This document shows positions 5,817-50,419 of a stretch of 64,000 bases of DNA, in pieces. The notes under the pieces were generated by a model. The model had not been told where the DNA came from, did no database searches, and worked only from the letters and a program-made list of their open reading frames with translations. The stretch comes from Thermoplasmata archaeon (GTDB lineage Archaea; Thermoplasmatota; Thermoplasmata; Lutacidiplasmatales; UBA184), in the NCBI GenBank assembly GCA_035933635.1, contig DASYYY010000030.1, forward strand, positions 2,911-66,910. Reading direction: 5' to 3'. The stretch's first letter is position 1, and every line of letters begins with the position of its first letter. A program made the position numbers and the translations under genes.

Positions 5817-5840
5817 CCTCGAACCTCTACGGCGGCGGCG

Positions 5841-9833: not shown

Positions 9834-10235
9834 CTACGGCGCGGCCGGCGGTAGGGTCCCGGGGGTCGGGGTAGGAGGCGTTTCGGCGTCGTCCTCCACG
9901 ACGTCCGGTAGGACCTCCCCGGAGGCGATCTGGTCGGCCTCGATCACCGGGTCGTCGAACTCCTCGTCGGCTCCCGTCTCCGCCGCCGTGACGGTCGGTT
10001 CCCCGGTCCCCGCCGCACCGGAAGCGGTGGAGCTCGGTGCCATGGGGGCTGCCGTGTGGAGCGGGCGGCTACTGTAGTCCCACAGGAACAGCACGGCCAC
10101 GACCACCACGACCGCCAGGCCACCGAACATCACCCACAAGCTGTGGACGGTGAACGACAGGTACACACTCACGACCAGGATGGCCGACAGGATCACGAGG
10201 ACGGCGGGCAGCGTCAGCCGCTCGAACCCGCGCAC
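9834..10235 (-). CDS. Hypothetical small membrane protein (2 predicted TM helices, acidic Pro/Thr-rich tail)
   Basis: LTLPAVLVILSAILVVSVYLSF and WVMFGGLAVVVVVAVLFLW hydrophobic helices. Codon position 3 is G/C-rich. No recognisable family. Confidence 0.45.
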   Translation of the reverse strand: MRGFERLTLPAVLVILSAILVVSVYLSFTVHSLWVMFGGLAVVVVVAVLFLWDYSSRPLHTAAPMAPSSTASGAAGTGEPTVTAAETGADEEFDDPVIEADQIASGEVLPDVVEDDAETPPTPTPGTLPPAAP

Positions 10236-10293
10236 GTTGGCACGAAGCCACCTTGCAGATAGGCGTGGCGAGACGCCGCGCGCTGACGAGGGG

Positions 10294-10299
10294 TTATAT
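10294..10299 (+). promoter_or_regulatory. TATA-like box (TTATAT) about 25 nt upstream of the rtcB ATG
   Basis: GGGTTATATGCC lies in an otherwise GC-rich spacer. The geometry is leaderless. Confidence 0.45.
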
Positions 10300-10321
10300 G
10301 CCGCACCCGTGACGGCCCGGC

Positions 10322-11776
10322 ATGGACGGCCCGGTCCCGCGTCTCGTCGAGCTGGACGAGTACCGTTGGGAGATCCCTACGGGTGAGCGGGCGGGGATGC
10401 GCGTGCCCGGGGTCCTGTTCTCCAGCCGCAAGTTGCTCGAGGGGGTCGAGCACGACCCGTCGCTCGAGCAGCTCGCGAATGTCGCGACGCTACCGGGGAT
10501 CCAGCGTTCCGCGCTCGCGATGCCTGACATCCACTTCGGCTACGGCTTCCCCGTCGGCGGGGTCGCGGCCTTCGACCTGGCCGAGGGAGTCGTCTCCCCC
10601 GGCGGGATCGGCTACGACATCAACTGCGGGGTCCGCCTCCTCCGGACCGGCCTGACGGTGGCCGAGGTCCGACCGCGGCTGAAGTCGCTGATGGACGCGC
10701 TCTACCGGGAGGTGCCGAGCGGCGTGGGCTCCAAGGGTGGGACCGCGTTGTCGGGCGCTCAGATGGACGAGGTGCTCGCCGGGGGCGCCGCGTGGGCGGT
10801 CGCCCAAGGACACGGCCGGCCCGAGGACCTGACCGTCCAGGAGGAGGAGGGCCGGATGCGCCGGGCCGACCCGGCCAAGGTCGGCGACAGCGCGCGCAAG
10901 CGCGGGCTGCGCCAGCTCGGGACGCTCGGCAGCGGCAATCACTTCCTCGAGGTCCAGGCCGTCGACGAGGTCTTCTTCCCGGAGTTCGCCGGGGCGCTCG
11001 GGCTCGTGCCCGAGTCGGTCGTCGTGATGCTCCACACCGGCTCGCGCGGCCTCGGTCATCAGGTCGCCACGGACTACATCGAGCGGATGAACCGCCGGCT
11101 CGCGAGCGAAGGAACGACGCTCGTCGACCGCCAGCTCTCGTGCGCCCCGATCGCGAGCGACGACGGGCAGGCCTACCTCGATGCGATGGCCGCCGGCGCG
11201 AACTTCGCGTGGGCGAACCGCCAGCTGATCACCGAAGGAGTGCGGGCGGCGTTCCGCTCGAGCTTCGCCGGCGCCAACGGCTCGGCCGACGTCTCGGTCG
11301 TCTACGACATCGCGCACAACATGGCCAAGGAGGAGGTCCACACCGTCGACGGGCAGCCGCGCGCGGTCCTCGTCCACCGCAAGGGGGCCACGCGGGCGTT
11401 CCCGCCGGGCCGCGAGGAGGTCCCCGCGTCGTACCGGTCCTTCGGCCAGCCGGTCCTCATCCCGGGCGACATGGGGACCGCGAGCTACGTGCTCGCCGGG
11501 CTCGACAGCGCGCTCGAGCGGTCGTTCGGCTCGTCCTGCCACGGTGCGGGTCGCCGGCTGAGCCGGCACGCCGCCGCCCGGCAGTTCCGCTACGACGAGG
11601 TGACCCGGAACCTGTCGATGAAGGGGATCGTCGTCCGGTCGGCGAGCCACGAAGGCGTCACCGAGGAAGCCCCCGGCGCCTACAAGGACGTCGACGAGGT
11701 CGTGCGCGTCGCCGAAGGCGCCGGTCTCACCCGGCGCGTGGCGCGTCTCCGCCCTCTCGGCGTGGTCAAGGGCTGA
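10322..11776 (+). CDS. rtcB: RNA-splicing ligase RtcB (3-prime-phosphate/5-prime-hydroxyl RNA ligase)
   Basis: 484 aa with MPDIHFGYGFPVGGV, GYDINCGVRLL, GSGNHFLEVQ, HTGSRGLGHQ and SSCHGAGR motifs. The length is normal, so there is no intein. Confidence 0.95.
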   Translation: MDGPVPRLVELDEYRWEIPTGERAGMRVPGVLFSSRKLLEGVEHDPSLEQLANVATLPGIQRSALAMPDIHFGYGFPVGGVAAFDLAEGVVSPGGIGYDINCGVRLLRTGLTVAEVRPRLKSLMDALYREVPSGVGSKGGTALSGAQMDEVLAGGAAWAVAQGHGRPEDLTVQEEEGRMRRADPAKVGDSARKRGLRQLGTLGSGNHFLEVQAVDEVFFPEFAGALGLVPESVVVMLHTGSRGLGHQVATDYIERMNRRLASEGTTLVDRQLSCAPIASDDGQAYLDAMAAGANFAWANRQLITEGVRAAFRSSFAGANGSADVSVVYDIAHNMAKEEVHTVDGQPRAVLVHRKGATRAFPPGREEVPASYRSFGQPVLIPGDMGTASYVLAGLDSALERSFGSSCHGAGRRLSRHAAARQFRYDEVTRNLSMKGIVVRSASHEGVTEEAPGAYKDVDEVVRVAEGAGLTRRVARLRPLGVVKG

Positions 11777-14700
11777 CCGGCGTCGTCGGGGGCGCCGGCT
11801 CCGGCGGAGGCGTCTGCCGGCGGGATCGGCTTCGCTCGTAGATCACCGCCAGCGCGGCGACGATCACTCCAGCGCCCACCCCGAGGAAGATCAATGCGAG
11901 GGCGAACCGGGAGGGAGACGACGGGACCGGCGGGCCGACGTTCAGGTGAAGCACGACGACGCCGGTGAAGTTCGGCGCCTGAGCGACGGCGGCGAGCCAG
12001 AACCCGCCCTGCAGCGGCGGGGCTGCGAACGACACCGGCACCGAGACGTTGGCCGTGAGCGGCCCGATCGGTCGGATGAGTTCCGGAGCTCCCGAGCTGT
12101 TGTTCAGCCGTACCTCGAGCTCGACGGCGATCGGCTCGTTGGCGCATTCCGGAACGGTGTACGCGACGCAGAGCGGATAGCCGGAGACCTCCAGCGGGAA
12201 GCTCCCACCGGCGGGCACGGTCGACCGGGAGGAGTAGGCCGTGAGCTGTACCGGCGTCGGATGGTAGACGGTGACCGACATCCGGGCGGTCACCACGTCG
12301 CCGAAGGTGTCGGTGGCGTTGACGGTCACGTTGAACCGACCGTGGTCGGGGAACGCGTGCAGTACCGACCGGCCGGTGCCGTTGGTGCCGTCGCCGAACG
12401 ACCAGTTGAAGGAGAAGGGCGGGACCCCCCCGGTCGCGTTGGCGGACAGGTTCAGCGAGCACGGGGTGAAGCAGCGCGTCAGGTTCGGTAGGATGCGGAC
12501 CGATGGGGGAGGGATCACGGCCCCCGTCACGGCCACCGCCTGGTCGAGCTGCCAGTGGTCGCCGCCGGCGTCGCCGACCGTGGCCACCGCCGTGAAATTG
12601 CCCGGCCGTAGGAAGGCGTGCCGGACCGAGGCGCCGGTGATCGCCGTCCCGTCCCCGAGCGACCAGTTCGTCGTGATCCCCGGAAGGCCCGAGGCCGTGA
12701 CCGTGCTCGTCCAGGGGAGCGGGGTCGACCCGCCGCGGCCGCCCCAGGTGACCGATGGCGTGATCGCACTCCAGAGCCCCCCGAAGAACGCCCCCAGAGC
12801 AGGTTGGACGATCAGTCGGGCGCCGGTAGAGTCACGGACCGTGAGCGAGACGTTCAGCATGCACCGGGTCCCGAGACTCGCGCACGACGGCGGGGCCGGA
12901 GACTCGGTGACCGACGGGCCGAAGGCGGAGGTGCCGTCGGAGAGGTTCCAGAGGTAGGTGTAGCTCCCCGACCCACCCGTCGCGGTCGCATTGAACGTCA
13001 TGGGCGCCCCGAGTCCGGCGAACGTTCCGGGGGAGATCGTGGCGGTGACGCCGAGCGGATTGCCGGAGCCGGTGGTGACATCGACCACCATGAGTTCGCT
13101 CGCGTTCCCGCCGGCCGTATCCTGCAGGTCGGCGAGGACGGAGTGTTCGCCCGGGGTCGAGAAGTTCAGGACCGGGTTCTGCCCGAGGACGGGAGTTCCG
13201 CCGTCGACCGACCAGGACGTGCGATTCGGGTCCACGCCGTGGCCGCCCGTGTGCGAGGTCTGGGAGAATCGAACGGACAGCGGCGCCGCGCCGGAGGTCG
13301 GTGCCGACAGGAACGTCGCCGACAGCCTCGGATAGAGCGTGACGGAGAGCGTGCGCGTGGTGACGTTGCCCAGGCTGTCGTTGGCGTACAGGGTCAGGGT
13401 GACGGTGCCGACCGTACGGAACACCCCGCACTGGCAAAGCGTCGAGTAGGGGTCGGCGCTGTCGATCCACGTGGTCAGCGGTCCCACGCCGCCCGACGCG
13501 TTCCAGCGCAGCGGCAGGTCGCCCGGCAGGTCGGCGGAGACCCTCGCCGACGTCAGATTGGCGAACACCGGCGGACCGGGAGCGCAGACCGGTCGGAACG
13601 GTGTCCCGATCGCCACGGAGACCGGCAGCGAGCCACCGGCATCGATCGGTCGCGCCGAATCGCTCGCCATGGCCAGAGCACAGTACCCTCCGGCGTTCCG
13701 GTAGGTGTGGGTGACCGACGAAACGCTGCCGGGGATCGAGTACGTCCCATCGCCGAACCAGATCTGGTAAGTGTACGGCGCGGTGCCGCCCGCGACCGAG
13801 ACCTGGAAGAGCACGGGGGTGCCGACCGGCCCACCGCTGGTGCTCGCCGTGAGCGTCACGGCCAGCGGCGTGCCGCCCCCGACCAGCACGATCACCGGCG
13901 CCGACAGCGTGGAGTTCCCCGCGGCGTCGAAGACCGTAACGGTGGCGTTGAAGACGCCGGCCCGGCGATATTCGTGCGTGGTGGTCGGACCGAGCGTCGG
14001 CGAGGCGTTGCCGTCGCCGAAGGTGAAGTCGTACCATGAGTACGGTGACGCACCACCGGACACCCTCGCGGTGAACGTGACGTTGAGCGGGACGGCGCCG
14101 GTGGTCCGATCCGCGGTGATGCGGGCGAATAGGTCGGAGACGCCGAACGGCGTCCGGGACAGTGCCGGAATCAGCCGCGCCACGTCCGGCGTTCCTATGC
14201 CGGTCACGGGATCCCAGCCGATCCCGGCCGCATAACCGTTCGAGCCGGAGATGATGTCGTGGAAGGCGGTCGAGTACGACCCGTTGCGGAGGATCGCGTA
14301 GAGGGCGGGATTGAGGAAACCCTCGCGACCCCGGATCGCCTGGTCCATCACGGCCGTCATCCCCGCCCAGGAAGGCGTGCCGACGCTGGTGCCGATCACC
14401 AGGTAGGTACCGTGGTCGAAGACGATCGGTACGCCCGTCTCCGCGTCGAGCGCGACATCGGGGGCCCCACGCAGGTCCGGCTTCGAGGGGAGGCCGGTCC
14501 CGGCCTGCCAGGAGGGGCGCGGGAACGGGCTCCAACCTCCGCCGGAACCGCCCTGGTTGACGCACCCCGAGCCGGTCGCACCGGAGGCGTTTCCGCTCCA
14601 AGCGACCTCGTTGACGTAGCCCCCGTTCGCGTTGACGTTCAGCGACGTGCCGCCGACCCCGGTCGCCCACGGGTCGGAGGAGGGATAGTTCGTCGACACT

Positions 14701-15983
14701 CCGTTGGTCCCGCCGGCGGCGCCGCAGTCCCCGCTCGCCACGAACACCGAGATCCCCTCGGCGGCGGCCGCCGCGAGCACCGGGTGCAGTAGACCGTAGG
14801 AGCCGTCGCTGGAGGCGTTGCAGGCGCTCGAGCACGGCGTGGTGACCGAGTTGAACACGCCGACGTCCGGCTCGCCCCAGCTCAGCGAGAGCACCTGGAC
14901 GGAGTCCTGGGCGACGAACCAGTCGACCGCGCCGTAGATCGCGGCGTTGGTCGGGGCGGTCAGTGCGATCGTGATGGCATCGCCCGGGGCAGTGGCCCGC
15001 GCCCACTCGAGGTCGAGCGCCTCCTCGTCGGCCCAGAGGTCACTGGCCGAGGTGTTCAGCGAGTTTCCGGCGGGGACCGGATAGGCGATCTGCACGTTGC
15101 CGCCGGGTAGGGCGAACGCCTTGGCGAACGAGGCGAAGTCACTCGACAGGAGCGGTTGCGGCTCGCTGCTGTCGTAGCCATCGACGATGCCGACGTGAAC
15201 ACCGGTCCCGTTCGTACCTCCGGCCAGAAGCCCGGAGTAGTCGTAGGCGTTCCAGAACGCGCAGGGCGGGAGCGGGCCACTGACCGTGCAGTTGGCGGCG
15301 GAACCCCGGATCGCGCCAGAGGGGAACGCTTGGGCCATCGGGTGGATGTTCGTGAGGTTCCCGAGGCCCACGGCACCATACCAAGGCAGACCGCTGGGGA
15401 GCGAGGCCGGGAGCGTGTGGGTGAAGACCGTACGCCCCCCGACCCTGTACCGGTCGAACTCCGTGTGGAACGCGGCGCCCAGCCCGCCGGAACTTCCCGT
15501 CACCCGCAGCAGGAAGCGATCCGGGCTCGGAACGACGGTCAGGCCGAAGGCCGCGAAGTAGGTCGCCGCGCTTGCGATCGAGGTCGGCGAGGCGCCGAAT
15601 TCGTCGGCGACCTGAGCGGGCGTCAGGAAGTGGTGATAGCTCGGAGCGCCGGGAGTGCTGACCGCCTGGGCGATGTTCTCGAGGGAGACGAGCGAGGCGG
15701 GACCCAGGGCCACATCGACCGCGAGGGGAGTCGAATTGGCAAGCCGGCCGAGATAACTCGCTCCGATTGGGGCGTCGAACCCGGGTGCGACCTGGACGAG
15801 CGCACTCGTCGGACCCTTCGAGCCCGGGCCGGAGAGTACGTTCGTCGACGAGGTCGGCGACCCATAGGAGGCGCCGGTGTTCAGGAGGACGACGAGGACC
15901 GCGTAGACGGTCGCGGCGCCCAGGAGCCGGCGGAACCCGAGACGGGATGACGGGACGGTGGCGGGGTCGGTCGGGCGTCGCAC
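11766..15983 (-). CDS. Sedolisin (peptidase S53)-like exoprotease 1: pro-domain, S53 domain, PKD-like array, C-terminal TM anchor (about 1405 aa)
   Basis: Signal/anchor FRRLLGAATVYAVLVVLL. Pro-kumamolisin-like pro-domain (HHFLTPAQVADEFG). Catalytic motifs EEALDLEW, ASGDCGA and IGTSVGTPSWAGM. C-terminal anchor ALALIFLGVGAGVIVAALAVIY followed by RSRSRR. The proposed GTG start at 15983 lies 25 nt downstream of a TATA box. The track ORF extension to 17672 is antisense to the S2P gene. Confidence 0.85.
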   Translation of the reverse strand: MRRPTDPATVPSSRLGFRRLLGAATVYAVLVVLLNTGASYGSPTSSTNVLSGPGSKGPTSALVQVAPGFDAPIGASYLGRLANSTPLAVDVALGPASLVSLENIAQAVSTPGAPSYHHFLTPAQVADEFGASPTSIASAATYFAAFGLTVVPSPDRFLLRVTGSSGGLGAAFHTEFDRYRVGGRTVFTHTLPASLPSGLPWYGAVGLGNLTNIHPMAQAFPSGAIRGSAANCTVSGPLPPCAFWNAYDYSGLLAGGTNGTGVHVGIVDGYDSSEPQPLLSSDFASFAKAFALPGGNVQIAYPVPAGNSLNTSASDLWADEEALDLEWARATAPGDAITIALTAPTNAAIYGAVDWFVAQDSVQVLSLSWGEPDVGVFNSVTTPCSSACNASSDGSYGLLHPVLAAAAAEGISVFVASGDCGAAGGTNGVSTNYPSSDPWATGVGGTSLNVNANGGYVNEVAWSGNASGATGSGCVNQGGSGGGWSPFPRPSWQAGTGLPSKPDLRGAPDVALDAETGVPIVFDHGTYLVIGTSVGTPSWAGMTAVMDQAIRGREGFLNPALYAILRNGSYSTAFHDIISGSNGYAAGIGWDPVTGIGTPDVARLIPALSRTPFGVSDLFARITADRTTGAVPLNVTFTARVSGGASPYSWYDFTFGDGNASPTLGPTTTHEYRRAGVFNATVTVFDAAGNSTLSAPVIVLVGGGTPLAVTLTASTSGGPVGTPVLFQVSVAGGTAPYTYQIWFGDGTYSIPGSVSSVTHTYRNAGGYCALAMASDSARPIDAGGSLPVSVAIGTPFRPVCAPGPPVFANLTSARVSADLPGDLPLRWNASGGVGPLTTWIDSADPYSTLCQCGVFRTVGTVTLTLYANDSLGNVTTRTLSVTLYPRLSATFLSAPTSGAAPLSVRFSQTSHTGGHGVDPNRTSWSVDGGTPVLGQNPVLNFSTPGEHSVLADLQDTAGGNASELMVVDVTTGSGNPLGVTATISPGTFAGLGAPMTFNATATGGSGSYTYLWNLSDGTSAFGPSVTESPAPPSCASLGTRCMLNVSLTVRDSTGARLIVQPALGAFFGGLWSAITPSVTWGGRGGSTPLPWTSTVTASGLPGITTNWSLGDGTAITGASVRHAFLRPGNFTAVATVGDAGGDHWQLDQAVAVTGAVIPPPSVRILPNLTRCFTPCSLNLSANATGGVPPFSFNWSFGDGTNGTGRSVLHAFPDHGRFNVTVNATDTFGDVVTARMSVTVYHPTPVQLTAYSSRSTVPAGGSFPLEVSGYPLCVAYTVPECANEPIAVELEVRLNNSSGAPELIRPIGPLTANVSVPVSFAAPPLQGGFWLAAVAQAPNFTGVVVLHLNVGPPVPSSPSRFALALIFLGVGAGVIVAALAVIYERSRSRRQTPPPEPAPPTTPVSP
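12265..14130 (-). repeat. Array of about 6-7 PKD-like domains within sedolisin 1
   Basis: Recurrent pattern [VL]xFxAxxxGGxxPYxYxWxFGDG....HxYxxxGxYxxxxxxxDxxG. Examples are NVTFTARVSGGASPYSWYDFTFGDGN and NLSANATGGVPPFSFNWSFGDGTNG. Confidence 0.75.
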
Positions 15984-19823: not shown

Positions 19824-22800
19824 ATGAGCACCCTCCTAGGTAGTAGTGTAGACACGAGCCGCACCTTGAACCGCCCCGCGTTCCGCCTGGCCCTGCCCTT
19901 CCTCGCGGTGGTCATCATGGCCCTCTCGGGGGTGTTCTTCGCCACCGCTGCCGGAACACCGACGCTCGCGGCCGGTGCTCCGCATGCCACCGGTGCGTCA
20001 CAGTTTGCGATCGCTCCCCGCACCGGGCAGGAGCTGCAGCACCAGCCGTACCTGAGCTCGCCGGGGACGGGCACCTCGTCCGTTCCGAACGCGACGGTCA
20101 TCGGCAATACCCCTTCCGACCAATCGACGATGTTCACCGTCGGTTTCGACATGCGCAATGCGGCCGAGGCGGTCCAGATCCTCAACGAGCAGCAGACGCC
20201 CGGCTCTCCGATGTTCCACCACTGGCTGACCCTGGACCAAGAGAAGGCGATGTTCGCGCCGGACCCGACCGTCGTCCAGGACACGATCAATTACTTCACC
20301 TCGCTCGGATTCCAGGTCCAGACCCAGGGGATCCTCTCGGTTTCCTTCAGCGGCAAGGCCGTCCAGACGAACTCGGCCTTCCGAACCAACATGGTCGAGA
20401 TGCAGACCGCGACCGGTCAGCGCCTCGCCGTCAACTCCCTGCCCCTGTCGCTCCCCGAGGGGATCGCCCCGTACGTCGCCACCGTCAACGGCCTCAACCA
20501 GTACGACCAGGCCCAGATCACCAGCTTCGTCGACCCGTGGGGAACGAGCCTCTCGACCTCCTCGACGGCGGCTTCGCTGGGGGCCGGAGCGGCCCCGTCG
20601 GTCGGCGCGAGCGCCGCGGTGGCGCCGTCGGTGAACACCCAGGCCCCGCCGGGCGCGAACGTCACCAACATCAGCAAGATGTACAACTTCACCAACCACG
20701 CGTTCGGGTGGGTCGACTACTACTCGCACACGTTCAAGCAGTACCGGCTGTACCAGGTCGTCACGCCGGGCGCGCTCAGCTACCTCTACGGCGCGACCCC
20801 GCTCCTCAACGAGGGGGTCAACGGCAACTCCACCCACACCCCGATCCAGATCGCCATCATCATGGCCGGCGGGATCAACCCCGACGACCTCAAGCAGTAC
20901 GGCTCCGAGGTCTGGAACAACCCCAACAACATCCTCCAGCGCCTCAGCGTGATCCCCATCGACGGGGCCTACCAGCTCAACGGTACGCTCTACTACACCG
21001 ACGGGGCCTCGGGCGAGATGGCGCTCGACATCGAGTACTCGAGCACGCTGGCTCCGGGCGCCCAGATCATCGCGGTCTACGGACCCGGTCTGTACACCAA
21101 CGTGCTGGACGACGATTACGCCAAGCTCGCGGGGCTGGCCACCCCCCCGAACATCGTCTCCAACAGCTGGGGCGGCGAGGAGGACCGGTTCGGCTCGCTC
21201 TACGGTCCGACGTGGGAGAACGCGCTCACGATGCACAGCTACATCATGCTCCTGACCCTCCGCGGCTCCACGGTCCTCGCCTCGAGCGCGGACGGCGGCG
21301 GGTTCGACAAGGGCACCGGGATGCTCTCGGGTAGCTACCCGGCCACCGACCCCTACGTGCTCTCGGTCAACGGGGTACGGACGGCGGTCGCCGGCGCCGA
21401 CGGCAACGTCTACCCGACCAACCCGAACCTCGGCTGGACGAACATCAGTCTCGCGCCGGGCTCGTCGTACGAGAACTACGAGATGCGGATCGCGACGGCG
21501 ACGCAGATCGTCTACCAGAGCTTCTGGTACACCCCGACCTCGAACTACACCCTGCTCCGCGCCCCGCCCTACGCGAGCGGCGGCTTCGGGATCAGCAACT
21601 GGTTCAACCAGAGCTGGTGGCAGCACGGGCCGTTCATGCCCGACCTGGGACGCTCGCTCGGTAGCGGCGTCGCCGCCGAGGCCGACTTCAACGAGTCGAT
21701 CTTCTTCGACGGCGTCTGGGAATTGCGGTACGGCGGGACGAGCTTCGCCTGTCCGACGACCGCCGGGATGCTCGCGCTCGTCGAGGACTACCTCGCCAAG
21801 CACGGGATGAGCCCATACCTGGGGAACGGCAACGCCGTCACCACCCTCGTCGGGAACGCCTGGTACAACGGCAACCTTACCCTGAACCCCTACTACGACG
21901 TGACCAACGGGACGAGCTACTGGGGCAACCAGGGCGTCGCCCACGGCTGGTCGTGGCCGCCCGGGGATGCGTTCCCCTACAACGCCTACGGACCGGTGTA
22001 CGGCAACACGACCGTCGGCTGGGACTTCCCGACCGGCTGGGGTGTCATCAACCCGAACACGTTCGCGATCGACCTCTACACCCTCTACTCGATGCCGGGC
22101 CAGTTCACCACCTTGACGTCAAATGGGCTCAGTTACAGCCCGAGTGCTTGGGGAAACCTGGCGCTTAACGACACGTACACGCTTCACGTGAACGCAAGTG
22201 CGACTCTCAAGCTGTCAAACCCGCATGTCACTGTGATTTTCACTGACAGCTTGGGACACCGGACTTCGTTCCAGCCATCCCTCGTGAACACGAGTCTAGG
22301 CCCGGGTTATGACTTCGCATTGATCACTTCGGGGCCCCCATTCGACAGCCCCGGGTACATCTACTTCGAGTTCGGCAACGCGGCCAACCCGTCGCTCGGG
22401 TTCGCGTACTCGTGGATCGCCAAGGACATCCCGTCCTCGGGGAACCTGCAGGTCCAGGTCGTCACGCCATCGACCAGCAGCTATCCGGGGGGGTCGACGA
22501 TCTACAACTCCTACCTCGGCTGGATCGGAAACGTCGGTGATGCGCCGGACGGAGTCGCGCAGCCGTACACGAACACCTTCACGGTGCTCGTGACGGACAA
22601 CGGCAACCCGGTCTACAACGCCTGGGTCACCGCGACGATCCCCACGGCCGCGGACATCGTCTGGATGAACTCCATCGCCGCGGCGCGCGTGGGTTACCAC
22701 GGCGGGCTCGGCTCGGCCGAGACCACGAACATCATCTCCGGCTCGTACACCAACGTCAACGGCCTGGCGCTCGTCTCGACCGTGAACGTCATCAAGCCGA

Positions 22801-24881
22801 CCCCGGTCGTGATCCAGGCGAGCTACGGGCCGCTGAACGCGAGCACGAACTACCAGCTGTCGCCGATGCCCAACATCCGGCCCGTGGACAACTACGGTGG
22901 CAACTACTCGCAGTTCAATTTCATCAACTACCTGCTGAACTACTTCCGGGCCCCCGTCACCTGCCAGTGGGAGGACCTGTACGACCCCAACTCGTGCGCC
23001 CAGTCCGACTACAACTCGATGATCTACGGCTGGCAGGGCGAGGAGCTCAACATCTCGGTCAACGACTACCAGAACCACCCGCTCGCCAACCAGAGCGTCT
23101 GGCTCGGGAACTGGGACTTCGGCGACCAGACCCGGTTCGTCAACTACGAACCGTCCTACGGCGTGTACGGCATCACCAACACCTCGGGGGTCTACAACCT
23201 CAACGGCGGGCCGAACATCACGACCTCCGGGATGACCTCGCAGAAGGGCCAGGCGACGCTCTACATCCCCGACAACATGACCCCGCAGATCGGGTTCAAC
23301 TTCGTCGGCGGCCCCTACGCGGGGAAGTTCGCCGGGATCGACTACGTCGCCGCCTCGCTGCCGGGTTTGGAGAACCGGACGTTCAGCTACAGCGAGCCGT
23401 GCTCCCCGTCGGACTCGGTGCCGGTCCCGCTCATCAGCTGCCAGTTCAACAACTCCTTCCAGCGCAACTACACGACGGCCGCGGTCCTGGTCTTCCCCGA
23501 CCCGATCCACACCTGGACGCAGACCCGGGCGGGCGCGCAGCGCGACTTCTTCAGTACCGGGACGAACATCTCCTGGGGACTGAACGTCTCACTGCCCAAC
23601 AACGACCCGTTCCTGAGCGGTCCGGGCACGAACTGGAACCCCGGGCTCGAGCACGTCGTCTCGGTCAACGCCTACGTCGACGGCGTCTGGGCCGGTTCGC
23701 TCTCGCCCCAGGAACCGGGCGAGCAGTTCTGGTACACCTACGGCAATCTCAGCACGCCCGGGGCGCAGGGATACGCCCCCGGCATCCACACGCTGCTCGT
23801 GGAGGTCACCGACAGCCTCGGCCACACCTTCACCGACCGGCACGTCTTCGTGGTCGGCTCGGTCGCCTACCGCGACATCAGCCCGAGCAACGTCTACTCG
23901 CAGATGCCGTTCAACCTGACCTGGAACCTGCCGGGCTTCCCCGACGGCCAGGTCTCGAACAAGACGTTCAACATGTCGCTGGAGATCCGGTACGTGACGG
24001 GCGGCTGCGGGGGCGTCGACAAGTGCCCGCAGGTGGTCAACCTGTCGATCCCGGTCCACCCGCAGCAGGTGAACTACAGCCAGAGCATCAACCGCTCGCT
24101 GCTAATCAAGAACAACTTCTACAGCGGGGCGGGCGATCTACCGCCCGGTCAGTACCAGCTCATCGTCTGGTGGAACGCCAATCATAGCGGAAGCGTCTCG
24201 GCCGAGGCCTCGACGTTCCTCGTCTTCGACCCGTTGACCGCGCAGATCAACGGGCCGGGGCCGAACGCGCTCATCCCGCTCGGGAACGTGACGATCTCCT
24301 ACGCCTACGGCGGCCAGTACATCTCGAACGCCGTCCTCTCGGTGTACTCCGCCAAGACGCCGGGGATACCGGTCTACCAGGTCGGCGCCTTCCTGCCCGG
24401 GCTGACCACGCGGGGTGGCTCGGCGAGCTGGACGAGCGTCTCGGCCGGGGCGTACCTGATCGCGCTCAACCTGACCACCCCCTACGGCAACTACACCGCC
24501 CGTGAGTGGGTGAACGTCACGCTGGGCGCCCCCCAGGCGTACATCAACGGCTCGACCGGCCAGAAGCCGATCGCCGGGCTCCCCATCGCACTGACCGGAA
24601 CGGTCCTCGCCATCGCGGCGGGAGTCATCGGGCTCCTGCTCGGGATGCTGTTGGCCCTACCGGTCCGGCAGAACGGCCGTGGGCCGAACGGCTCGCGGAC
24701 GGGTGCCGGCGGCTCCGCCAAGCCCTGGGATGAAGGCGCTGCGACCGGTGGCGCCGGTGCCGCCGCCACTGCCACTGGCGCCGCGGCCGGAGGGAGCGTC
24801 TGCCCGATCTGCCACGAGCGGTTCGAGACGCCGTACGCGTTGGCCCAGCACGGCAAGATCATGCACGGGATCGAGGAGTAG
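19824..24881 (+). CDS. Sedolisin (S53)-like exoprotease 2 with a long C-terminal extension, TM anchor and cytoplasmic C2H2 zinc finger (1685 aa)
   Basis: Signal peptide FRLALPFLAVVIMALSGVFFATAAG. Pro-domain (PMFHHWLTLDQEKAMFAP). Catalytic motifs GEMALDIEYS, ASSADGGG and GGTSFACPTTAGM. About 800 aa of sequon-rich uncharacterised region. TM helix at 24570-24665. CPICHERFETPYALAQHGKIMH at the extreme C-terminus. Confidence 0.85.
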   Translation: MSTLLGSSVDTSRTLNRPAFRLALPFLAVVIMALSGVFFATAAGTPTLAAGAPHATGASQFAIAPRTGQELQHQPYLSSPGTGTSSVPNATVIGNTPSDQSTMFTVGFDMRNAAEAVQILNEQQTPGSPMFHHWLTLDQEKAMFAPDPTVVQDTINYFTSLGFQVQTQGILSVSFSGKAVQTNSAFRTNMVEMQTATGQRLAVNSLPLSLPEGIAPYVATVNGLNQYDQAQITSFVDPWGTSLSTSSTAASLGAGAAPSVGASAAVAPSVNTQAPPGANVTNISKMYNFTNHAFGWVDYYSHTFKQYRLYQVVTPGALSYLYGATPLLNEGVNGNSTHTPIQIAIIMAGGINPDDLKQYGSEVWNNPNNILQRLSVIPIDGAYQLNGTLYYTDGASGEMALDIEYSSTLAPGAQIIAVYGPGLYTNVLDDDYAKLAGLATPPNIVSNSWGGEEDRFGSLYGPTWENALTMHSYIMLLTLRGSTVLASSADGGGFDKGTGMLSGSYPATDPYVLSVNGVRTAVAGADGNVYPTNPNLGWTNISLAPGSSYENYEMRIATATQIVYQSFWYTPTSNYTLLRAPPYASGGFGISNWFNQSWWQHGPFMPDLGRSLGSGVAAEADFNESIFFDGVWELRYGGTSFACPTTAGMLALVEDYLAKHGMSPYLGNGNAVTTLVGNAWYNGNLTLNPYYDVTNGTSYWGNQGVAHGWSWPPGDAFPYNAYGPVYGNTTVGWDFPTGWGVINPNTFAIDLYTLYSMPGQFTTLTSNGLSYSPSAWGNLALNDTYTLHVNASATLKLSNPHVTVIFTDSLGHRTSFQPSLVNTSLGPGYDFALITSGPPFDSPGYIYFEFGNAANPSLGFAYSWIAKDIPSSGNLQVQVVTPSTSSYPGGSTIYNSYLGWIGNVGDAPDGVAQPYTNTFTVLVTDNGNPVYNAWVTATIPTAADIVWMNSIAAARVGYHGGLGSAETTNIISGSYTNVNGLALVSTVNVIKPTPVVIQASYGPLNASTNYQLSPMPNIRPVDNYGGNYSQFNFINYLLNYFRAPVTCQWEDLYDPNSCAQSDYNSMIYGWQGEELNISVNDYQNHPLANQSVWLGNWDFGDQTRFVNYEPSYGVYGITNTSGVYNLNGGPNITTSGMTSQKGQATLYIPDNMTPQIGFNFVGGPYAGKFAGIDYVAASLPGLENRTFSYSEPCSPSDSVPVPLISCQFNNSFQRNYTTAAVLVFPDPIHTWTQTRAGAQRDFFSTGTNISWGLNVSLPNNDPFLSGPGTNWNPGLEHVVSVNAYVDGVWAGSLSPQEPGEQFWYTYGNLSTPGAQGYAPGIHTLLVEVTDSLGHTFTDRHVFVVGSVAYRDISPSNVYSQMPFNLTWNLPGFPDGQVSNKTFNMSLEIRYVTGGCGGVDKCPQVVNLSIPVHPQQVNYSQSINRSLLIKNNFYSGAGDLPPGQYQLIVWWNANHSGSVSAEASTFLVFDPLTAQINGPGPNALIPLGNVTISYAYGGQYISNAVLSVYSAKTPGIPVYQVGAFLPGLTTRGGSASWTSVSAGAYLIALNLTTPYGNYTAREWVNVTLGAPQAYINGSTGQKPIAGLPIALTGTVLAIAAGVIGLLLGMLLALPVRQNGRGPNGSRTGAGGSAKPWDEGAATGGAGAAATATGAAAGGSVCPICHERFETPYALAQHGKIMHGIEE
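24801..24866 (+). other. C2H2 zinc-finger motif CX2CX12HX4H (C-terminal tail of sedolisin 2)
   Basis: CPIC-HERFETPYALAQ-H-GKIM-H read directly from the translation. It lies downstream of a TM helix and a basic residue. Confidence 0.75.
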
Positions 24882-24997
24882 GTCCGACCGGCGGCTCACG
24901 GTCTCGGCGCGAACCCTTTCCCCCCTCGCCGGCCGACGGCGCCACCGGCCGCATACGGATGGATACATGCGCGCCGGTTTCGTCGGCTGTTCCGCGA

Positions 24998-25007
24998 AAT
25001 TTAAGTA
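24998..25007 (+). promoter_or_regulatory. TATA-like box (AAATTTAAGT) about 27 nt upstream of ATG 25029
   Basis: The only A/T-rich element in the 148-nt spacer. The geometry is leaderless. Confidence 0.45.
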
Positions 25008-25028
25008 ACGAAAGTCGTCCCCATCGCC

Positions 25029-26603
25029 ATGGTCCGCTCTCGTTGGGCAGTCCTAGGTCTAATCGGCACCGCGGCACTCGTCCTGCTGGGTTTGGGAACG
25101 GCTCTGGCCGGCCTCCCCTCCCACAGCGGCGAGCTCCGGGCCGCGCCGGTCGGCCCTGCGGCGGCGCCCCATGCCTTGGTCTCCCATGCGAGCCCTGCGA
25201 CGGTCCGAGGGGCAGCCCCGCTCCCAGTACCTTGGATCAACGTCACTATCACGAACACGCTGCCGGCGTCGGCCGCCCCCCCGATCACCCTGAATTTCAC
25301 GATCAACGTCACCGGCGTGCCGATCAGTCCCAAGAACGAGAGTGCCACCATCCTGATCACCGCCGGGCCGAGCGCGACGCTCATCGGTAGCCACGGGGTC
25401 GCGATCACCGCGGGCCAGGCCAACTACAGCGTGGTCATGGACTACCTCTACATCGGCGGTGAGTCGCCGATGCCCACCTCGACCTACGTGTTCAACGTCA
25501 GCGTCAGCGCCTGGAACAACCTCATCGCCCCGGGAAACCCCGGCGCACCGGGTGGAACCGCGATCAAGAACTACACGACCCAGTCGATGGCGACGATGCT
25601 CGTGGACAACCCGGGCATCTCGATCACCAGCACCATCGCGGTCTACGACACGCTCCCGATCCAGGTGAACTTCCTGACCAGCTTCGACCCCGCCAATTCC
25701 GGAATCGTTGCGAATGCGATGAACATGACCATCGTGTTCACGTTCGCGTACACCGTGACCGGGGCGGAACTGATCAACCTCACCTTGCCGTTCAACGCGA
25801 GCGGCGGCTATGCCGTGACCATCAACGCCTCGAACCTCGCGATCCTCAACTACAACAACGGCGTCTACGCGAGCGGCGTCGGTTCGGACAGCTACGCCAT
25901 CACCGCGTCGATCACGGCCCAGAACTCCTCGGACCCATCGTTCCCGACCCGGACGGTGGAGGCGCAGGACGTCGTCCTGTTCACGACGAACACTCCGACG
26001 GTCAGCATCCTGTCGCCGACGAACAAGACCACGGGGCTCTACGTGGGCAACAACGTGACCATCACTACGGGCTACCAGGGCGACTTCGTCACCGGCGCGA
26101 ACGTGACGGTCACCCCGGCCGGGGGCGGACAGGCGGTCTACACCCAGGGTATCTTCACCCCGGGTCCGGGCGGTCATGCCTCGGCCGTGCTCTGGGTCCC
26201 GGGTCTCGCGGGGAAGTACACGATCACGGCCCAGATCCTGACCCCCTACGGATCGTTCAGTTCGACGAATACCAACGTCACGATCCTCGCCGCGAGTGCC
26301 AACTCCGGCTCGGGGATCTCCTACGTCAACAGCACCACCTGGCACAACGCCTCGCTGTTGGGCGGGTTGAGCCCCGGTGTCGCCAGCGCGCTCCTCCTCG
26401 TCGTGGGGCTCGTCATCGGCATGATCGTGGCGCTCGCGCTCGGCCGGATGATGTGGGCCAGCGGCAAGCCGGCCGGTGCCCAGCCCTGGAGCGCTTCCAA
26501 GGGCGGCGCGGGCGGGGCGAACGAGTGCTCGGTCTGTCACCAGACGTTCGGCACGCCCGAGGAGCTCAAGGACCACCAGAAGCAGGCCCACGGGATGGGT
26601 TAG
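25029..26603 (+). CDS. Exported, sequon-rich surface protein with C-terminal TM anchor and cytoplasmic C2H2 zinc finger (524 aa)
   Basis: Signal peptide WAVLGLIGTAALVLLGLGTALAG. Many NxS/T sites (NVTITNT, NFTINVTG, NYSVV, NVSVS...). TM helix at about 26367-26447. Tail CSVCHQTFGTPEELKDHQKQAH. Confidence 0.75.
   Translation: MVRSRWAVLGLIGTAALVLLGLGTALAGLPSHSGELRAAPVGPAAAPHALVSHASPATVRGAAPLPVPWINVTITNTLPASAAPPITLNFTINVTGVPISPKNESATILITAGPSATLIGSHGVAITAGQANYSVVMDYLYIGGESPMPTSTYVFNVSVSAWNNLIAPGNPGAPGGTAIKNYTTQSMATMLVDNPGISITSTIAVYDTLPIQVNFLTSFDPANSGIVANAMNMTIVFTFAYTVTGAELINLTLPFNASGGYAVTINASNLAILNYNNGVYASGVGSDSYAITASITAQNSSDPSFPTRTVEAQDVVLFTTNTPTVSILSPTNKTTGLYVGNNVTITTGYQGDFVTGANVTVTPAGGGQAVYTQGIFTPGPGGHASAVLWVPGLAGKYTITAQILTPYGSFSSTNTNVTILAASANSGSGISYVNSTTWHNASLLGGLSPGVASALLLVVGLVIGMIVALALGRMMWASGKPAGAQPWSASKGGAGGANECSVCHQTFGTPEELKDHQKQAHGMG
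26526..26591 (+). other. C2H2 zinc-finger motif CX2CX12HX4H (C-terminal tail)
   Basis: CSVC-HQTFGTPEELKD-H-QKQA-H. Same spacing and same conserved F, TP and L positions as at 24801-24866. Confidence 0.75.
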
Positions 26604-26630
26604 GACGACCCCTCCCGCCGGCAGGTCCAA

Positions 26631-32234: not shown

Positions 32235-35200
32235 ATGGGGGAAGGGACCATAACGAACGAATCGGACCGCTGGCGGAGTCGTCGCGCGCTGTCGACGATC
32301 ACCGCGGCGATCGTGATGATTGTCGTTGTCGTCGTCGTGGGCGCGGCCGCCTACGTCGCGCTCGGCAACGCCGGCAAGGGAGGGAACGAGACCAAGCTGA
32401 CCTGCTGGCCTCCCAATAGCCAGGGGTGTGCGAAGATCGCGTCGAACCACGATCTGAAGGTCTTGGCACCGTTCAAGACCACTCAGACCGGCAACCCCGT
32501 GCCCTTCACCGTCATTGTTCCGACGGGATCGGCCTCTTCCTACAGTTTCAATTTCGGTGACGGAGCCACCGCCACCTCGACCACGCCCACCGTCGACCAC
32601 ACCTACGGCCAGCCGGGGAACTACCTCGTGCAGGTGTCCGCGTCGGTGAGCGGAGCTACCCATGACAATCTGAAGGCGCTCGCCTCGATCACGGTCAAGG
32701 CCTCCTACGCCTCGTTGACCGCGGGCAACGCTCCGAGCGTCGGCGGCGCCATCGTTTCCAACAGTTCAGCCTCGTCGGCCGCCACGGCGGTCCTCAGCCC
32801 GGGCAACACCGTGACCGTTTCGGGCAGTTATCTCGGTGCCCCGACCAACCCGAACTTCCTACCAGTGAACCCGCGCATCTACTCCGAGCCCAACGCATCG
32901 AGCCAGTCGAACTCCAGTAAATCGGCGACCGCGATCACCTCGGCTCTGACCTACGCCAACCCCGGGACCTACGTGGTGACCATGGTCGGCCAGGCTAACG
33001 GCGCCGGTCCCAGCGCCGGCCAGACCGCCTTCCAGGACTACAGCTGGACCGTCATCGTCGCACCGAGCGGCGTGTCGGCGGGCGTCGCGGGGGCCAACGT
33101 GGCCTCCGACCCCCACCCGGGCACGGTCATCTACTACAGCACAGCCCAGGGTGGAGCATCCTCGCTCGACCCGGCGATCGCTTACGACACGGTCAGCTAC
33201 GAGCCGATCCTCTCGGTCTATGAGGCGCTGATCATGTACAACGGTTCGCAGACCGGGCCGGACCCCTCGAACTACCTGCCGGTCCTGTCGACGTGCGTAC
33301 CTGGCCCGGCCAGCGCGTCGTGCCAGGCGCTCTACGGTTCGGGGAGCACGCTCTACGACCCGTCCACTCAGAGCTACACGTTCCCCATCGTCCAGAACGC
33401 CCGGTTCTACGACCCGAACACGAAAGCCAGCTGGCCCGTCTACCCAAGCGACGTGTTCTTCTCGATCGCCCGGACGTTGGCTTTCGGCAACATCCCTGGA
33501 TTCGGATCGCACAATGGCTGGATCATCGCGCAGTCGTTGCTTCCGGCTGGCAACCCGCTGTGGGACGGTGGTATCCACGCTCCGGTCAACAACACACCGC
33601 AGGCGATTGCGGCATCGATGACGGTGAACGGGACGGACTGCACCGCGGCCATCCTGAAGGACTCGAATGGATGTATCACCTTCCACGTAAATGGGGAGGG
33701 ACTGACGTGGCCGTACTTCCTCGAGCTCATTGCTGACCAGCTTGGCGGCTCCGTGGTCTCCTGCGGCTGGGTAAGCGCTATGGGCTCGACCGAAGGCTCG
33801 GCGCCAATCCCCGGCTGGACAGGCACCGCAAATGACCAACCGTGCCTGCTGCCTGGCGGTGCGCATTCGACCAACGACGCCTCCTTTACGACCTGGCTCG
33901 CCGCCCAGGCGCCGGAGTCGTGGGACGGTTACGAGGCGACAGGCGCAGGTCCGGCCAGCCTCGGGAATGTGATCAGCCAGATGGTCGGAACGGGACCCTT
34001 CTATCTCTCGGGCTACAGCATCGGGCAGTCCTACGCCCTCGCGTCAAGCCCGGCTTATCAGCCGAATCCGTTCTGCACGTGGCAGAACTGCATGCCGGCG
34101 GCCAACACGCAGAGCTCCAAGCACTACCCGCAGAAGGTCGAGGTCACCTGGGAGACGGACATCTCCGAAGGGGAGCAGGCGCTCGCGGCCGGTGTCGCCG
34201 ACACCGCCGGGATTCCTGCGACCGACACGGCGCTCGAACTGCAGTTGATCCAACAGGGCAAGGTGAACGCGCTGAGCTTCCCGTCGATCAGCATCTACTT
34301 CTTCCCCTACGACCTGTCGTTCAACCTCGCGCTGGCGCAGCACTACACGACGAACCCGATCACGGTGCCACCGGACTGGTTCACCTCCGTGGGGATGCGG
34401 AACTTCTTCACGGACGCGTACCCCTACTCCACGATCGAGTCCACGGTGCTGACCGTCGACGGAATCCAAACAGGGTTCGAGTATGGCGGTGCGATTCCGC
34501 AGTTCATGGCGAACTACTACCCGACGAACGTCTCCTGGCCGAGCCAGGACCCGGCGCAGGCCTGCGCGGCGGACGCCAGCGGGCCGAACTGTGCGTCGTG
34601 GTGGTGGACGCAGTTGACCACGCCCTCGAGCCCGTACTACGACCCCGAGGCAGCGAAGTGTACCACGAGCGCGCCGTGCCAGCTCCCGCTGGTCGGTGAG
34701 ACCGGTTCACCGCCGCTCGACCAGCAAGAGAACCTGTGGGTGAACTCCATCAACGCGCTCTCCGGCGGCAAGCTCAAGGTCGTGTACACGGACATCAACT
34801 TCGGGCAGCTCGTGACGAACTCCCTGTTCGCTGCGCCGTACCAGAACTCGATGCCCTTCTACACGCTGGGCTGGGCGCCCGACTACCCCGACCCGACGGA
34901 CTACGTCAACCCGCTGTTTATTCCGAACAGTACCTACACCTACGGCGACGCGGTGGCGGAGCAACTGAGCTCTCTCAATAGCTCGAGCTGCGACCAGAAC
35001 CTGTGGGACTACTCCAACGGGAAGGCGTCGGTCACCCAGGCCTGCCAGGGCGCAGCGTACAACCTGATGACCAACGCCCTCACCGTCGCGGCGGTCACTC
35101 CGGCGGGTCCGTACCGGGTCCTGCTCTACAACGCGGCCGAGCACATCGCCAAGGAGCTCGCGCTCTACACCTACCAGTACCAGTCGAACCAGCAGTTCGT

Positions 35201-35309
35201 CATGTCCAGCTGGGTGAGCATCTCGTCGATCAACACCAACGTGACCACGGGTGGCGGCGGGGACTTCATCTGGTGGGGCCTGAGCGGCAACGGAGTCTGG
35301 GGTAGCTAG
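32235..35309 (+). CDS. ABC transporter substrate-binding protein 1, family 5 (OppA/DppA-like), double-sized (1024 aa), with N-terminal PKD-like module
   Basis: N-terminus RWRSRRALSTITAAIVMIVVVVVVGAAAYV. PKD-like SYSFNFGDGATATSTTPTVDHTYGQPGNYLV. Family-5 core blocks DPAIAYDTVSYEPILSVYEALI and GWAPDYPDPTDYVNPLF. GGTGA lies 9 nt upstream of the ATG. Confidence 0.85.
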   Translation: MGEGTITNESDRWRSRRALSTITAAIVMIVVVVVVGAAAYVALGNAGKGGNETKLTCWPPNSQGCAKIASNHDLKVLAPFKTTQTGNPVPFTVIVPTGSASSYSFNFGDGATATSTTPTVDHTYGQPGNYLVQVSASVSGATHDNLKALASITVKASYASLTAGNAPSVGGAIVSNSSASSAATAVLSPGNTVTVSGSYLGAPTNPNFLPVNPRIYSEPNASSQSNSSKSATAITSALTYANPGTYVVTMVGQANGAGPSAGQTAFQDYSWTVIVAPSGVSAGVAGANVASDPHPGTVIYYSTAQGGASSLDPAIAYDTVSYEPILSVYEALIMYNGSQTGPDPSNYLPVLSTCVPGPASASCQALYGSGSTLYDPSTQSYTFPIVQNARFYDPNTKASWPVYPSDVFFSIARTLAFGNIPGFGSHNGWIIAQSLLPAGNPLWDGGIHAPVNNTPQAIAASMTVNGTDCTAAILKDSNGCITFHVNGEGLTWPYFLELIADQLGGSVVSCGWVSAMGSTEGSAPIPGWTGTANDQPCLLPGGAHSTNDASFTTWLAAQAPESWDGYEATGAGPASLGNVISQMVGTGPFYLSGYSIGQSYALASSPAYQPNPFCTWQNCMPAANTQSSKHYPQKVEVTWETDISEGEQALAAGVADTAGIPATDTALELQLIQQGKVNALSFPSISIYFFPYDLSFNLALAQHYTTNPITVPPDWFTSVGMRNFFTDAYPYSTIESTVLTVDGIQTGFEYGGAIPQFMANYYPTNVSWPSQDPAQACAADASGPNCASWWWTQLTTPSSPYYDPEAAKCTTSAPCQLPLVGETGSPPLDQQENLWVNSINALSGGKLKVVYTDINFGQLVTNSLFAAPYQNSMPFYTLGWAPDYPDPTDYVNPLFIPNSTYTYGDAVAEQLSSLNSSSCDQNLWDYSNGKASVTQACQGAAYNLMTNALTVAAVTPAGPYRVLLYNAAEHIAKELALYTYQYQSNQQFVMSSWVSISSINTNVTTGGGGDFIWWGLSGNGVWGS

Positions 35310-50358: not shown

Positions 50359-50419
50359 CGCCCGAATGCTCGGACCGCAATCCGCGACTTGTCGTCGGCC
50401 AGAAACTGGTGAAGTTGTC

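Follow-up and report, generated by a model that had tools for sequence, protein, structure and literature searches.

Why do two neighboring genes of an archaeon, one for an exported protease and one for a surface glycoprotein, end in the same stalk, transmembrane (TM) helix and C2H2 zinc finger? The question arises from a 64-kb stretch of DNA (~69% G+C), hereafter the window, from contig DASYYY010000030.1 of a Thermoplasmata archaeon, in which gene A encodes an exported sedolisin (peptidase family S53) and gene B, starting 147 bp downstream of A, encodes a type I surface glycoprotein. The first-pass annotation of the window had pointed to the likeness of the two C-termini, and we confirm that the shared C-terminal module is real. 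Sequence and structure modeling predict that it anchors proteins in type I orientation, keeping a few exported ones, acid proteases among them, on the cell surface with the finger toward the cytoplasm. Our favored reading, to which we assign a probability of roughly one half, is that the finger would serve as the zinc-binding, protein-docking end of this surface-display module and not as a DNA binder.

A module shared by two neighboring genes

Gene A encodes an N-terminal signal anchor, a pro-kumamolisin activation domain, a subtilase-like catalytic domain, a sequon-rich extension, and the shared module; its Pfam matches (Pro-kuma_activ, PF09286, 2.9e-20; Peptidase_S8, PF00082, 1.1e-7) follow the sedolisin order of activation domain and then subtilisin-like domain. 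B consists of a signal anchor, a variable ectodomain, and the shared module. The features of the pair, with the basis for each (ORF, open reading frame; aa, amino acids), are:

19824..24881 (+): gene A, exported sedolisin (S53), 1685 aa (ORF and Pfam)
23892..24263 (+): A penultimate beta-sandwich of the shared module, aa ~1357-1480 (hhalign against B aa ~205-332)
24285..24539 (+): A membrane-proximal stalk beta-sandwich, aa 1488-1572 (BLASTP against the B stalk; shuffling)
24585..24659 (+): A TM helix IALTGTVLAIAAGVIGLLLGMLLAL, containing GxxxG (hydrophobic run; aligned with the B TM helix)
24720..24728 (+): A juxtamembrane KPW motif (tail alignment A1)
24801..24878 (+): A C-terminal C2H2 finger CPICHERFETPYALAQHGKIMH and terminal GIEE (motif scan; Pfam)
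24879..24881 (+): A stop codon (ORF)
24997..25008 (+): AT-rich box AAATTTAAGTAA, centred ~27 nt before the B start codon (read from the sequence)
25029..26603 (+): gene B, type I surface glycoprotein, 524 aa (ORF; orthologues in the same synteny)
25047..25115 (+): B N-terminal signal peptide or signal anchor AVLGLIGTAALVLLGLGTALAGL (hydrophobic run after MVRSRW)
25641..26024 (+): B penultimate beta-sandwich of the shared module, aa ~205-332 (hhalign against A)
26037..26291 (+): B membrane-proximal stalk beta-sandwich, aa 337-421 (AlphaFold2 strands 337-420)
26373..26459 (+): B TM helix, aa 449-477, core ALLLVVGLVIGMIVALALG with GxxxG (AlphaFold2 helix)
26481..26489 (+): B juxtamembrane QPW of the PAQPW motif (consensus PAQPW in tail profile A2)
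26526..26600 (+): B C-terminal classical C2H2 finger CSVCHQTFGTPEELKDHQKQAH and terminal GMG (motif scan; AlphaFold2; profile)
26601..26603 (+): B stop codon (ORF)

BLASTP aligns the last 200 aa of A and B at 28% identity over ~200 columns (E=3e-14); the stalk alone reaches 35% over 85 aa (E=1.2e-8) and the zinc-finger tail alone 46% over 24 aa (E=1.6e-5). In 1000 shuffles the observed score was never reached for the stalk (z=12.9), the tail beyond the TM helix (z=11.4), or the whole 160 aa (z=20.2), while the score of the TM helix alone (z=1.9) reflects composition only. Both kinds of test thus bear out the cassette of stalk, TM helix, [KQ]PW motif, and C2H2 finger proposed in the first-pass annotation, and every string that it quoted lies where it was placed in the two ORFs. 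A six-frame scan of the window found three C-x2-C-x(8-14)-H-x(3-5)-H motifs, two of which are the tails of A and B; these end 3-4 residues before the stop codon.

The cassette had been taken as the last ~160-170 aa, with the ectodomains otherwise unrelated. The homology holds, but the extent does not. BLASTP finds no significant match in A for B aa 1-340; hhalign, a profile-profile comparison given alignments of B orthologues and of sedolisin orthologues with the cassette removed from both, matches B aa ~205-332 to A aa ~1357-1480 (probability 97.9%, E=6.5e-13). Because this additional upstream beta-sandwich domain is homologous, the shared module starts near position 25641 and not at 26120, spanning ~320 aa, or about 61% of B (~25641..26600 in B and ~23892..24878 in A). 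The ectodomains are therefore related over one further domain of ~125 aa, and the original claim stands for B aa 1-204, which has no counterpart in sedolisin A by profile comparison; homology of this segment to the remaining sedolisin was rejected on that ground.

N-x-S/T sequons are enriched ~2-3-fold in both proteins (42 in A versus 20 expected by composition; 18 in B versus 6.5 expected) and confined to the extracellular side, all 18 of those in B lying N-terminal of the C-terminal TM helix. Both TM helices contain GxxxG, one G of which is invariant across 54 tails. In B the helix is followed by R, MMW, the conserved PAQPW, a low-complexity linker, and the finger; in tail alignment A1 the W of the juxtamembrane motif is invariant and the P nearly so. 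With all sequons outside, an Arg after the helix, and the need of a finger for a reducing compartment, the finger would lie in the cytoplasm.

Further observations concern the individual genes. The position of AAATTTAAGTAA, ~27 nt upstream of the start codon, suggests a candidate archaeal TATA/B recognition element, in which case B would be transcribed from a promoter of its own and its mRNA would have a short leader or none. Antisense to all of B runs a 523-aa ORF (window 25059..26630, −), of a kind typical of mirror ORFs at 69% G+C, which we do not count as a gene. The HGIEE terminus of A is retained in its orthologues P0004-P0008. At locus L001 (CAVPSE010000002.1, from a long-read MAG) two ORFs, one of 1430 aa (5286..9578) and one of 271 aa (9914..10816; P0004), together make up the sedolisin orthologue, the second piece bearing the stalk, TM helix, and finger; a frameshift or an error of assembly probably accounts for the split, the alternative being a pseudogene.

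A classical finger and its spread

For B aa 325-524, modeled from an alignment of 10 sequences, AlphaFold2 predicts the following (mean predicted local distance difference test score, pLDDT, 70):

aa 337-420: beta-sandwich stalk (pLDDT 70-87)
between stalk and TM helix: disordered spacer with conserved sequons (pLDDT below 50)
aa 449-477: TM helix (pLDDT 84-90)
between TM helix and finger: disordered linker (pLDDT below 50)
aa 498-521: beta-beta-alpha unit (pLDDT 74-87)

The beta-beta-alpha fold of the finger (two short strands and a helix) is thus a prediction and not a solved structure. For the stalk there is no Pfam model, and a Foldseek search of the B model against the PDB returned nothing at E<=1e-3, the best match (E=1.6e-3) being among generic Ig-like, CARDB, and macroglobulin (MG) folds.

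By its sequence and predicted fold the finger is of the classical C2H2 kind. It resembles Krueppel/TFIIIA-type fingers (PF00096) in its C-x2-C-x12-H-x4-H ligand spacing, present in A, in B, and in all 114 representative tails, in its Phe and Leu core (F in 112 of the 114 tails; L in 103 and M in 8), and in its predicted fold. Against solved Krueppel-type fingers, profile A2, built from 54 tails, scores ~18 bits for each finger (4.5e-22 in sum for Aart). H-x4-H is invariant here, while the eukaryotic consensus is usually H-x3-H. Unlike the Krueppel/TFIIIA type, there is a single finger and not an array, placed at the extreme cytoplasmic C-terminus of a type I membrane protein, and unlike the DNA-binding fingers of that type it is uniformly acidic (net charge -1 to -5 in 114/114). 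The helix positions -1/+2/+3/+6 are T/S, E/D/A, E/A, and E/A/Q/D, and the hallmarks of DNA-binding C2H2 proteins, basic base-contacting residues and tandem fingers, are absent from the 114 tails, each of which has a single finger.

The finger is also the most conserved region among 21 B orthologues, where mean aa identity is 29% in the ectodomain, 37% in the stalk, 64% in the TM helix, 50% in the linker, and 74% in the finger. The four ligands C, C, H, and H are invariant in all 114 representative tails, and a Gly follows the last His in 112. Pooled over the 21 orthologues, the ratio of nonsynonymous to synonymous substitution rates (dN/dS) is saturated and the ectodomain aligns poorly, with a ratio of the proportions of nonsynonymous and synonymous differences (pN/pS) of ~1; we therefore used the 10 closest pairs. 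By the Nei-Gojobori method these give 0.40 for ectodomain plus stalk, 0.34 for TM helix plus linker, and 0.16 for the finger (pS 0.35, pN 0.07), figures that are indicative since the pairs are non-independent and the finger has ~26 codons. One might suppose that the tail has no function, being an accidental prolongation of the ORF or an error of annotation in a high-GC genome, since long spurious ORFs are common at 69% G+C and B itself has its antisense mirror ORF. Yet frame, ligands, and core are conserved over ~114 clusters and more than 60 species genomes, synonymous differences far exceed nonsynonymous ones, and AlphaFold2 folds the tail confidently. We give this explanation a negligible likelihood: a non-functional tail or spurious high-GC ORF is excluded by conservation, and the earlier suggestion that the finger is selected for is upheld.

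How widely is the module carried? An exhaustive profile search of 1.84 billion representatives, clustered at 50% identity, returned 440 proteins at E<=1e-3, 111 of them with E<=1e-30; profile matches below ~1e-21 that span many stretches are eukaryote-type poly-finger proteins. The module is carried by ~132 representative clusters, with carriers ranging from ~190 aa (fragments) to 1700 aa and all from Thermoplasmata metagenome-assembled genomes (MAGs). Among the ~132 clusters, 113 end in a TM helix, PW, and a single finger at most 12, and nearly always 1-5, residues from the C-terminus. The finger tails are of "CxxCH" type in 64 of the 113 (B type "…NECSVCHQTF.TE.ELK.H.K.AHGM"; sedolisin type "…CPICHERFET…HGIEE") and of "CxxCG" type in 39 (consensus "NTCSVCGKSF.TPEELAAH.KSEHGM", whose "CSVCGKSF" resembles the eukaryotic C2H2 consensus). 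The ectodomains joined to the module include sedolisin, thermopsin (P0077, 4.2e-56), DUF4397 (P0025, 1.2e-39), a PKD-containing protein (P0132), and many Ig-like proteins without a Pfam match. With both beta-sandwiches, the TM helix, and the finger ending such different proteins, the cassette does behave as the transferable module that the first-pass annotation supposed. Its sharing by adjacent genes is real but does not reflect recent exchange between neighbors: the A tail ("...KPWEEG...HGIEE") represents one subtype and the B tail ("...PAQPW...HGM") another, and the division between them is old.

With each prokaryotic species represented by one genome, scans with two degenerate DNA patterns for the finger found 33 and 31 loci in Thermoplasmata MAGs, each with TM helix, PW, finger, and stop codon; matches outside Thermoplasmata are unrelated small soluble C2H2 proteins or chance. 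A narrow peptide pattern from A1 found four loci, fewer than either DNA pattern, and the tail-only profile A2 had at least five matches in a 5.8-billion-protein database, without new architectures or names. Assembly JASHSI is the only one in both DNA-pattern scans, so CxxCH and CxxCG distinguish two clades within the order and are not paralogous forms. Each narrow pattern scan gave one or two matches per species genome, so the module looks low-copy and not like a general sorting tag of dozens of proteins. Pattern-scan carriers include AcS/SubAcS MAGs and UBA184, which are assigned to Lutacidiplasmatales (PMC9287336), and the nearest relatives of the window proteins come from MAGs named Thermoplasmata or Candidatus Lutacidiplasmatales archaeon. 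Members of this order have ~69% G+C and genomes of ~2.1 Mb, live in acid soil, and prevalently encode extracellular S53 and thermopsin peptidases (PMC9287336).

What the finger may do

We propose a lineage-specific surface-display module of Lutacidiplasmatales (Thermoplasmata). As seen in or predicted from sequence, a carrier comprises, in order, an N-terminal signal, a variable sequon-rich or enzymatic ectodomain, two Ig-like stalk domains, a short sequon-bearing spacer, one GxxxG TM helix, an Arg, a PAQPW/KPW motif, a low-complexity linker of 10-45 aa, and a single C2H2 finger at the cytoplasmic C-terminus. The module has become joined to different ectodomains, among them those of sedolisin and thermopsin, acid proteases predicted to be held on the surface in this way, and that of glycoprotein B, which evolves fast and occurs across the order. 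The finger would bind zinc and act as a protein-protein docking knob, engaging one shared, putative cytoplasmic or membrane-peripheral partner that would provide positioning, retention, or clustering of the docked proteins, possibly as sedolisin-B assemblies.

DNA binding is unlikely given an acidic finger without basic base-contacting residues, and since the finger hardly differs between proteins whose ectodomains are unrelated, a single common partner fits better than separate specific targets. Acidity in 114/114 tails, non-basic base-contact positions, a single finger, and its uniformity together point to a protein-docking knob. The same evidence bears on regulated intramembrane proteolysis, in which the ectodomain would be shed or sense substrate, an intramembrane protease cut the TM helix, and the released PW-linker-finger fragment act as a cytoplasmic regulator. 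The layout of ectodomain, TM helix, and zinc domain resembles that of membrane-tethered factors in eukaryotes and of ZAS anti-sigma factors, conservation is strong in the TM helix and the juxtamembrane motif, and an M50 site-2-type protease with PDZ domains is encoded ~3 kb upstream of the sedolisin in L001. A lone finger whose recognition helix is acidic and which is not flanked by basic residues would, however, be a poor nucleic-acid binder, and being near-identical across differing ectodomains it would carry no signal specificity; the M50 gene is a common housekeeping gene, separated from A-B by a DNA primase gene, and no feature indicates a cleavage site. We regard this mechanism as improbable.

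A different use for a finger at the very end of the chain would be as a biogenesis or topology device, the finger folding on zinc as it leaves the ribosome to become a cytoplasmic plug, or else a tag for insertion, quality control, or processing; in either case the C-terminal helix would be secured as a stop-transfer anchor in cells that live at low external pH. It does stand at the extreme C-terminus in 114/114 tails, usually 1-5 residues from the stop, and always at a short flexible distance after the TM helix; the order of motif, TM helix, and tail is loosely like that of PGF-CTERM sorting signals, and the third sedolisin of the window has a CxxC...CxxC zinc ribbon in the same position. On the other hand, many proteins should bear a device of general use in topology or sorting, and there are apparently few carriers per genome; sedolisin 1 of the window is anchored by a TM helix and a Pro-rich tail with no zinc motif, variants of the module without a finger occur, no PGF-like motif is present, and known sortase signals are much shorter than the tail. 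We consider such a role unlikely.

Gene order speaks to the relation between A and B. At least 20 loci have a sedolisin with an HG[IV]E[ED] tail followed ~100 bp on by a B-type gene, and the synteny primase large subunit - sedolisin - B - SHMT - Csl4 - methyltransferase - PRC - ligase is the same in the window and at a locus on a 1.66-Mb contig. In the CxxCG clade, B adjoins SHMT and Csl4 at the same place, without a sedolisin. B orthologues are syntenic in more than 60 species genomes, making B a conserved, apparently single-copy gene of the order whose ectodomain is highly variable in length and sequence. We count the tandem at these loci, and the place of B beside SHMT in both clades, as suggesting a conserved A-B partnership in favor of protein docking. 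The conserved pair could also be invoked for oligomerization, in which fingers, GxxxG helices, and stalks would join sedolisin and B, or like chains, into a protease-scaffold complex or surface lattice with no separate partner. Both chains have a GxxxG TM helix with one invariant Gly, both have the two stalk domains, and zinc-mediated pairing of tails is known elsewhere, for example in the CD4/CD8-Lck zinc clasp. But with a full set of four ligands and a classical core each finger should fold alone and not share zinc, and B occurs without an adjacent sedolisin in the CxxCG clade. We place oligomerization, too, among the unlikely explanations; proteolysis, topology, and oligomerization are each weaker than docking to a shared partner.

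Several points nonetheless weigh against a zinc-dependent docking finger. Single tails score 16-22 bits against Pfam zf-C2H2 (PF00096), short of the gathering score of 25.2 (the A tail alone, likewise under that score, gives E=5.6e-4); set beside the profile matches to solved fingers this makes a mixed picture, one usual for single fingers. An acidic finger may yet have RNA, the head groups of lipids, or a basic surface of a protein as its ligand, so that charge is not decisive. In ~15 of the 132 clusters the stalk, TM helix, and PAQPW are kept and a Ser/Gly/Thr-rich tail replaces the finger, which is therefore not indispensable for anchoring. Copy number per genome comes from narrow DNA patterns and not from whole genomes, the selection figures are indicative, the docking partner is putative and zinc binding predicted only, and the carriers are all uncultured.

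Beyond docking itself, the C2H2 tail might provide an order-wide transmembrane coupling of glycoprotein B and the surface-held acid proteases to an internal scaffold (cytoskeletal, division, or vesicle), or relay surface events inward; this we offer tentatively, as a doubtful but conceivable extension.

Known systems, other zinc tails, and implications

The proteins described here resemble several known kinds. SlaB of Sulfolobus, haloarchaeal S-layer glycoproteins, and PGF-CTERM/archaeosortase substrates are C-terminally anchored archaeal surface proteins, with which A and B share an N-terminal signal, a sequon-rich Ig-like and fast-evolving ectodomain, a membrane-proximal stalk, and a single C-terminal TM helix. 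A and B differ in having a conserved cytoplasmic tail of 50-70 aa with a folded finger in place of a few basic residues, and in that the module is apparently on few proteins per genome. A PGF-CTERM/archaeosortase signal was rejected, because G-L-S-P-G-V-A-S precedes the helix and 50-70 residues with a folded domain follow it. ZAS anti-sigma factors and PA-TM-RING E3 ligases likewise have an extracytoplasmic domain, one TM helix, and a small cytoplasmic zinc domain engaged in protein-protein contact; their folds differ (HxxxCxxC, with the zinc domain N-terminal, in ZAS; C3H2C3 in PA-TM-RING) and there is no homology. A ZAS domain was rejected because the zinc motif here is C-terminal and C2H2, and that of ZAS an H-x3-C-x2-C at the N-terminus before the TM helix. 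Ros/MucR proteins have a Cys2His2 zinc site in a prokaryote, but a Ros finger was also rejected, its C-x2-C-x9-H-x3/4-H lying in a basic 58-aa DNA-binding globule, whereas the spacing here is x12 and the finger acidic.

The best functional analogy is CdpC of Haloferax volcanii, a membrane anchor of FtsZ1 whose C-terminal zinc ribbon binds FtsZ1, with essential zinc ligands and a long disordered linker to the membrane-binding part (bioRxiv 10.64898/2026.07.16.738847). Like CdpC, the present proteins are archaeal and membrane-associated with a small C-terminal zinc module on a linker, docking here being our proposal; unlike them, CdpC has C3H/C4 zinc ribbons, attaches to the membrane by an amphipathic and not a TM helix, and lacks an ectodomain, and there is no sequence relationship. 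Classical C2H2 fingers are rare in archaea; one reported example is an archaeal DNA-binding protein with a eukaryotic-type finger fold (PMC3541406). A paper on the cell surface of Thermoplasmatales (PMC12448462) does not mention the module, no description of its architecture was found in the searchable literature, and source records that name carrier proteins call them hypothetical. Within that literature the combination of a membrane-anchored archaeal surface protein with a classical C2H2 finger is undescribed, and it is conserved across the order.

Other tails and zinc motifs deserve a record. The finger-less members of the family (P0038, P0039, P0045, P0050, P0103, P0109, P0112, P0115, P0116, P0120, P0122, P0127, P0129, P0130, P0136, and P0139) have tails that terminate in ...NPPS or ...TNKP/DTPKP. 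The third sedolisin-like protein of the window (45552..48104, +; 850 aa; Pro-kuma_activ 5.8e-7) ends in a TM helix, an Arg-rich stretch, a long Pro/Ala linker, and, at 47991..48044, the zinc ribbon CPICKFEFEPEFDFCPRC, which lies 19 aa ahead of the stop codon and weakly matches DUF7575, Zn_ribbon_15, and DZR; together with the A finger, it gives two unrelated forms of cytoplasmic zinc tail on exported proteases in one 64-kb window. Sedolisin 1 (~11766..15860, −) has Pro-kuma_activ, several PKD domains, a C-terminal TM helix, and a short Pro-rich tail; as this tail has no zinc motif, a zinc tail is not needed for anchoring as such. A 165-aa ORF (48971..49468, −), a putative gene that has no Pfam match and overlaps a long + strand ORF, carries a stand-alone C2H2 motif CPVCSREYATRASLEIHLYGQH (49079..49144) after a Cys/His-rich sequence.

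Outside the order, soluble ~57-aa proteins (MNQNP...CEVCHQSFGSAQELQAHRQSAHGENKPGD...) of Acidobacteriaceae/Ca. Sulfotelmatobacter MAGs (L016, L023, L028, L030, and L035) have a finger closely resembling the archaeal tail (zf-C2H2 E=4.7e-4); these soil bacteria share habitats with Lutacidiplasmatales. Proteins from the Halorussus aquaticus chromosome (L049; 5611..6252, −) and a Haloarculaceae MAG (L071) show the inverse layout, an N-terminal cytoplasmic C2H2 finger MEDCEHCGASFDDEAAYLRHLRDEHG followed by a TM helix and an extracytoplasmic domain, and match no named Pfam family. Elsewhere in the window lie two paralogue pairs, one of ~235 aa (48167..48892 and 49611..50315, both +; common "...EHPSIRD.L..DI.NF..L.RKI...") and one of ~1030 aa (32235..35309 and 50366..53476, both +) with an N-terminal anchor and the appearance of solute-binding proteins; the second set has its small gene (49611..50315) just upstream of its large one (50366..53476).

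To our knowledge, classical C2H2 fingers are regarded as essentially eukaryotic and nucleic-acid-binding, with few prokaryotic examples. Here a single acidic finger of classical type is fixed at the cytoplasmic end of exported proteins across an uncultured but globally common order of acid soil and peat. Defining the module makes it possible to recognize, in Lutacidiplasmatales, the proteases anchored at the surface and the major surface protein with its variable sequence, and the 25-residue finger offers a bait for partners beneath their membrane. It would add another case to the emerging theme of small archaeal zinc modules that dock proteins at the membrane. Sedolisin and thermopsin are thought to be used by Lutacidiplasmatales for peptide scavenging (PMC9287336); on the present evidence these scavenging enzymes would be cell-bound and not freely secreted. 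Were the tail also to couple the surface to an internal scaffold, or to relay surface events inward, it would represent a previously unknown prokaryotic role for classical C2H2 fingers and a new principle of archaeal envelope organization.

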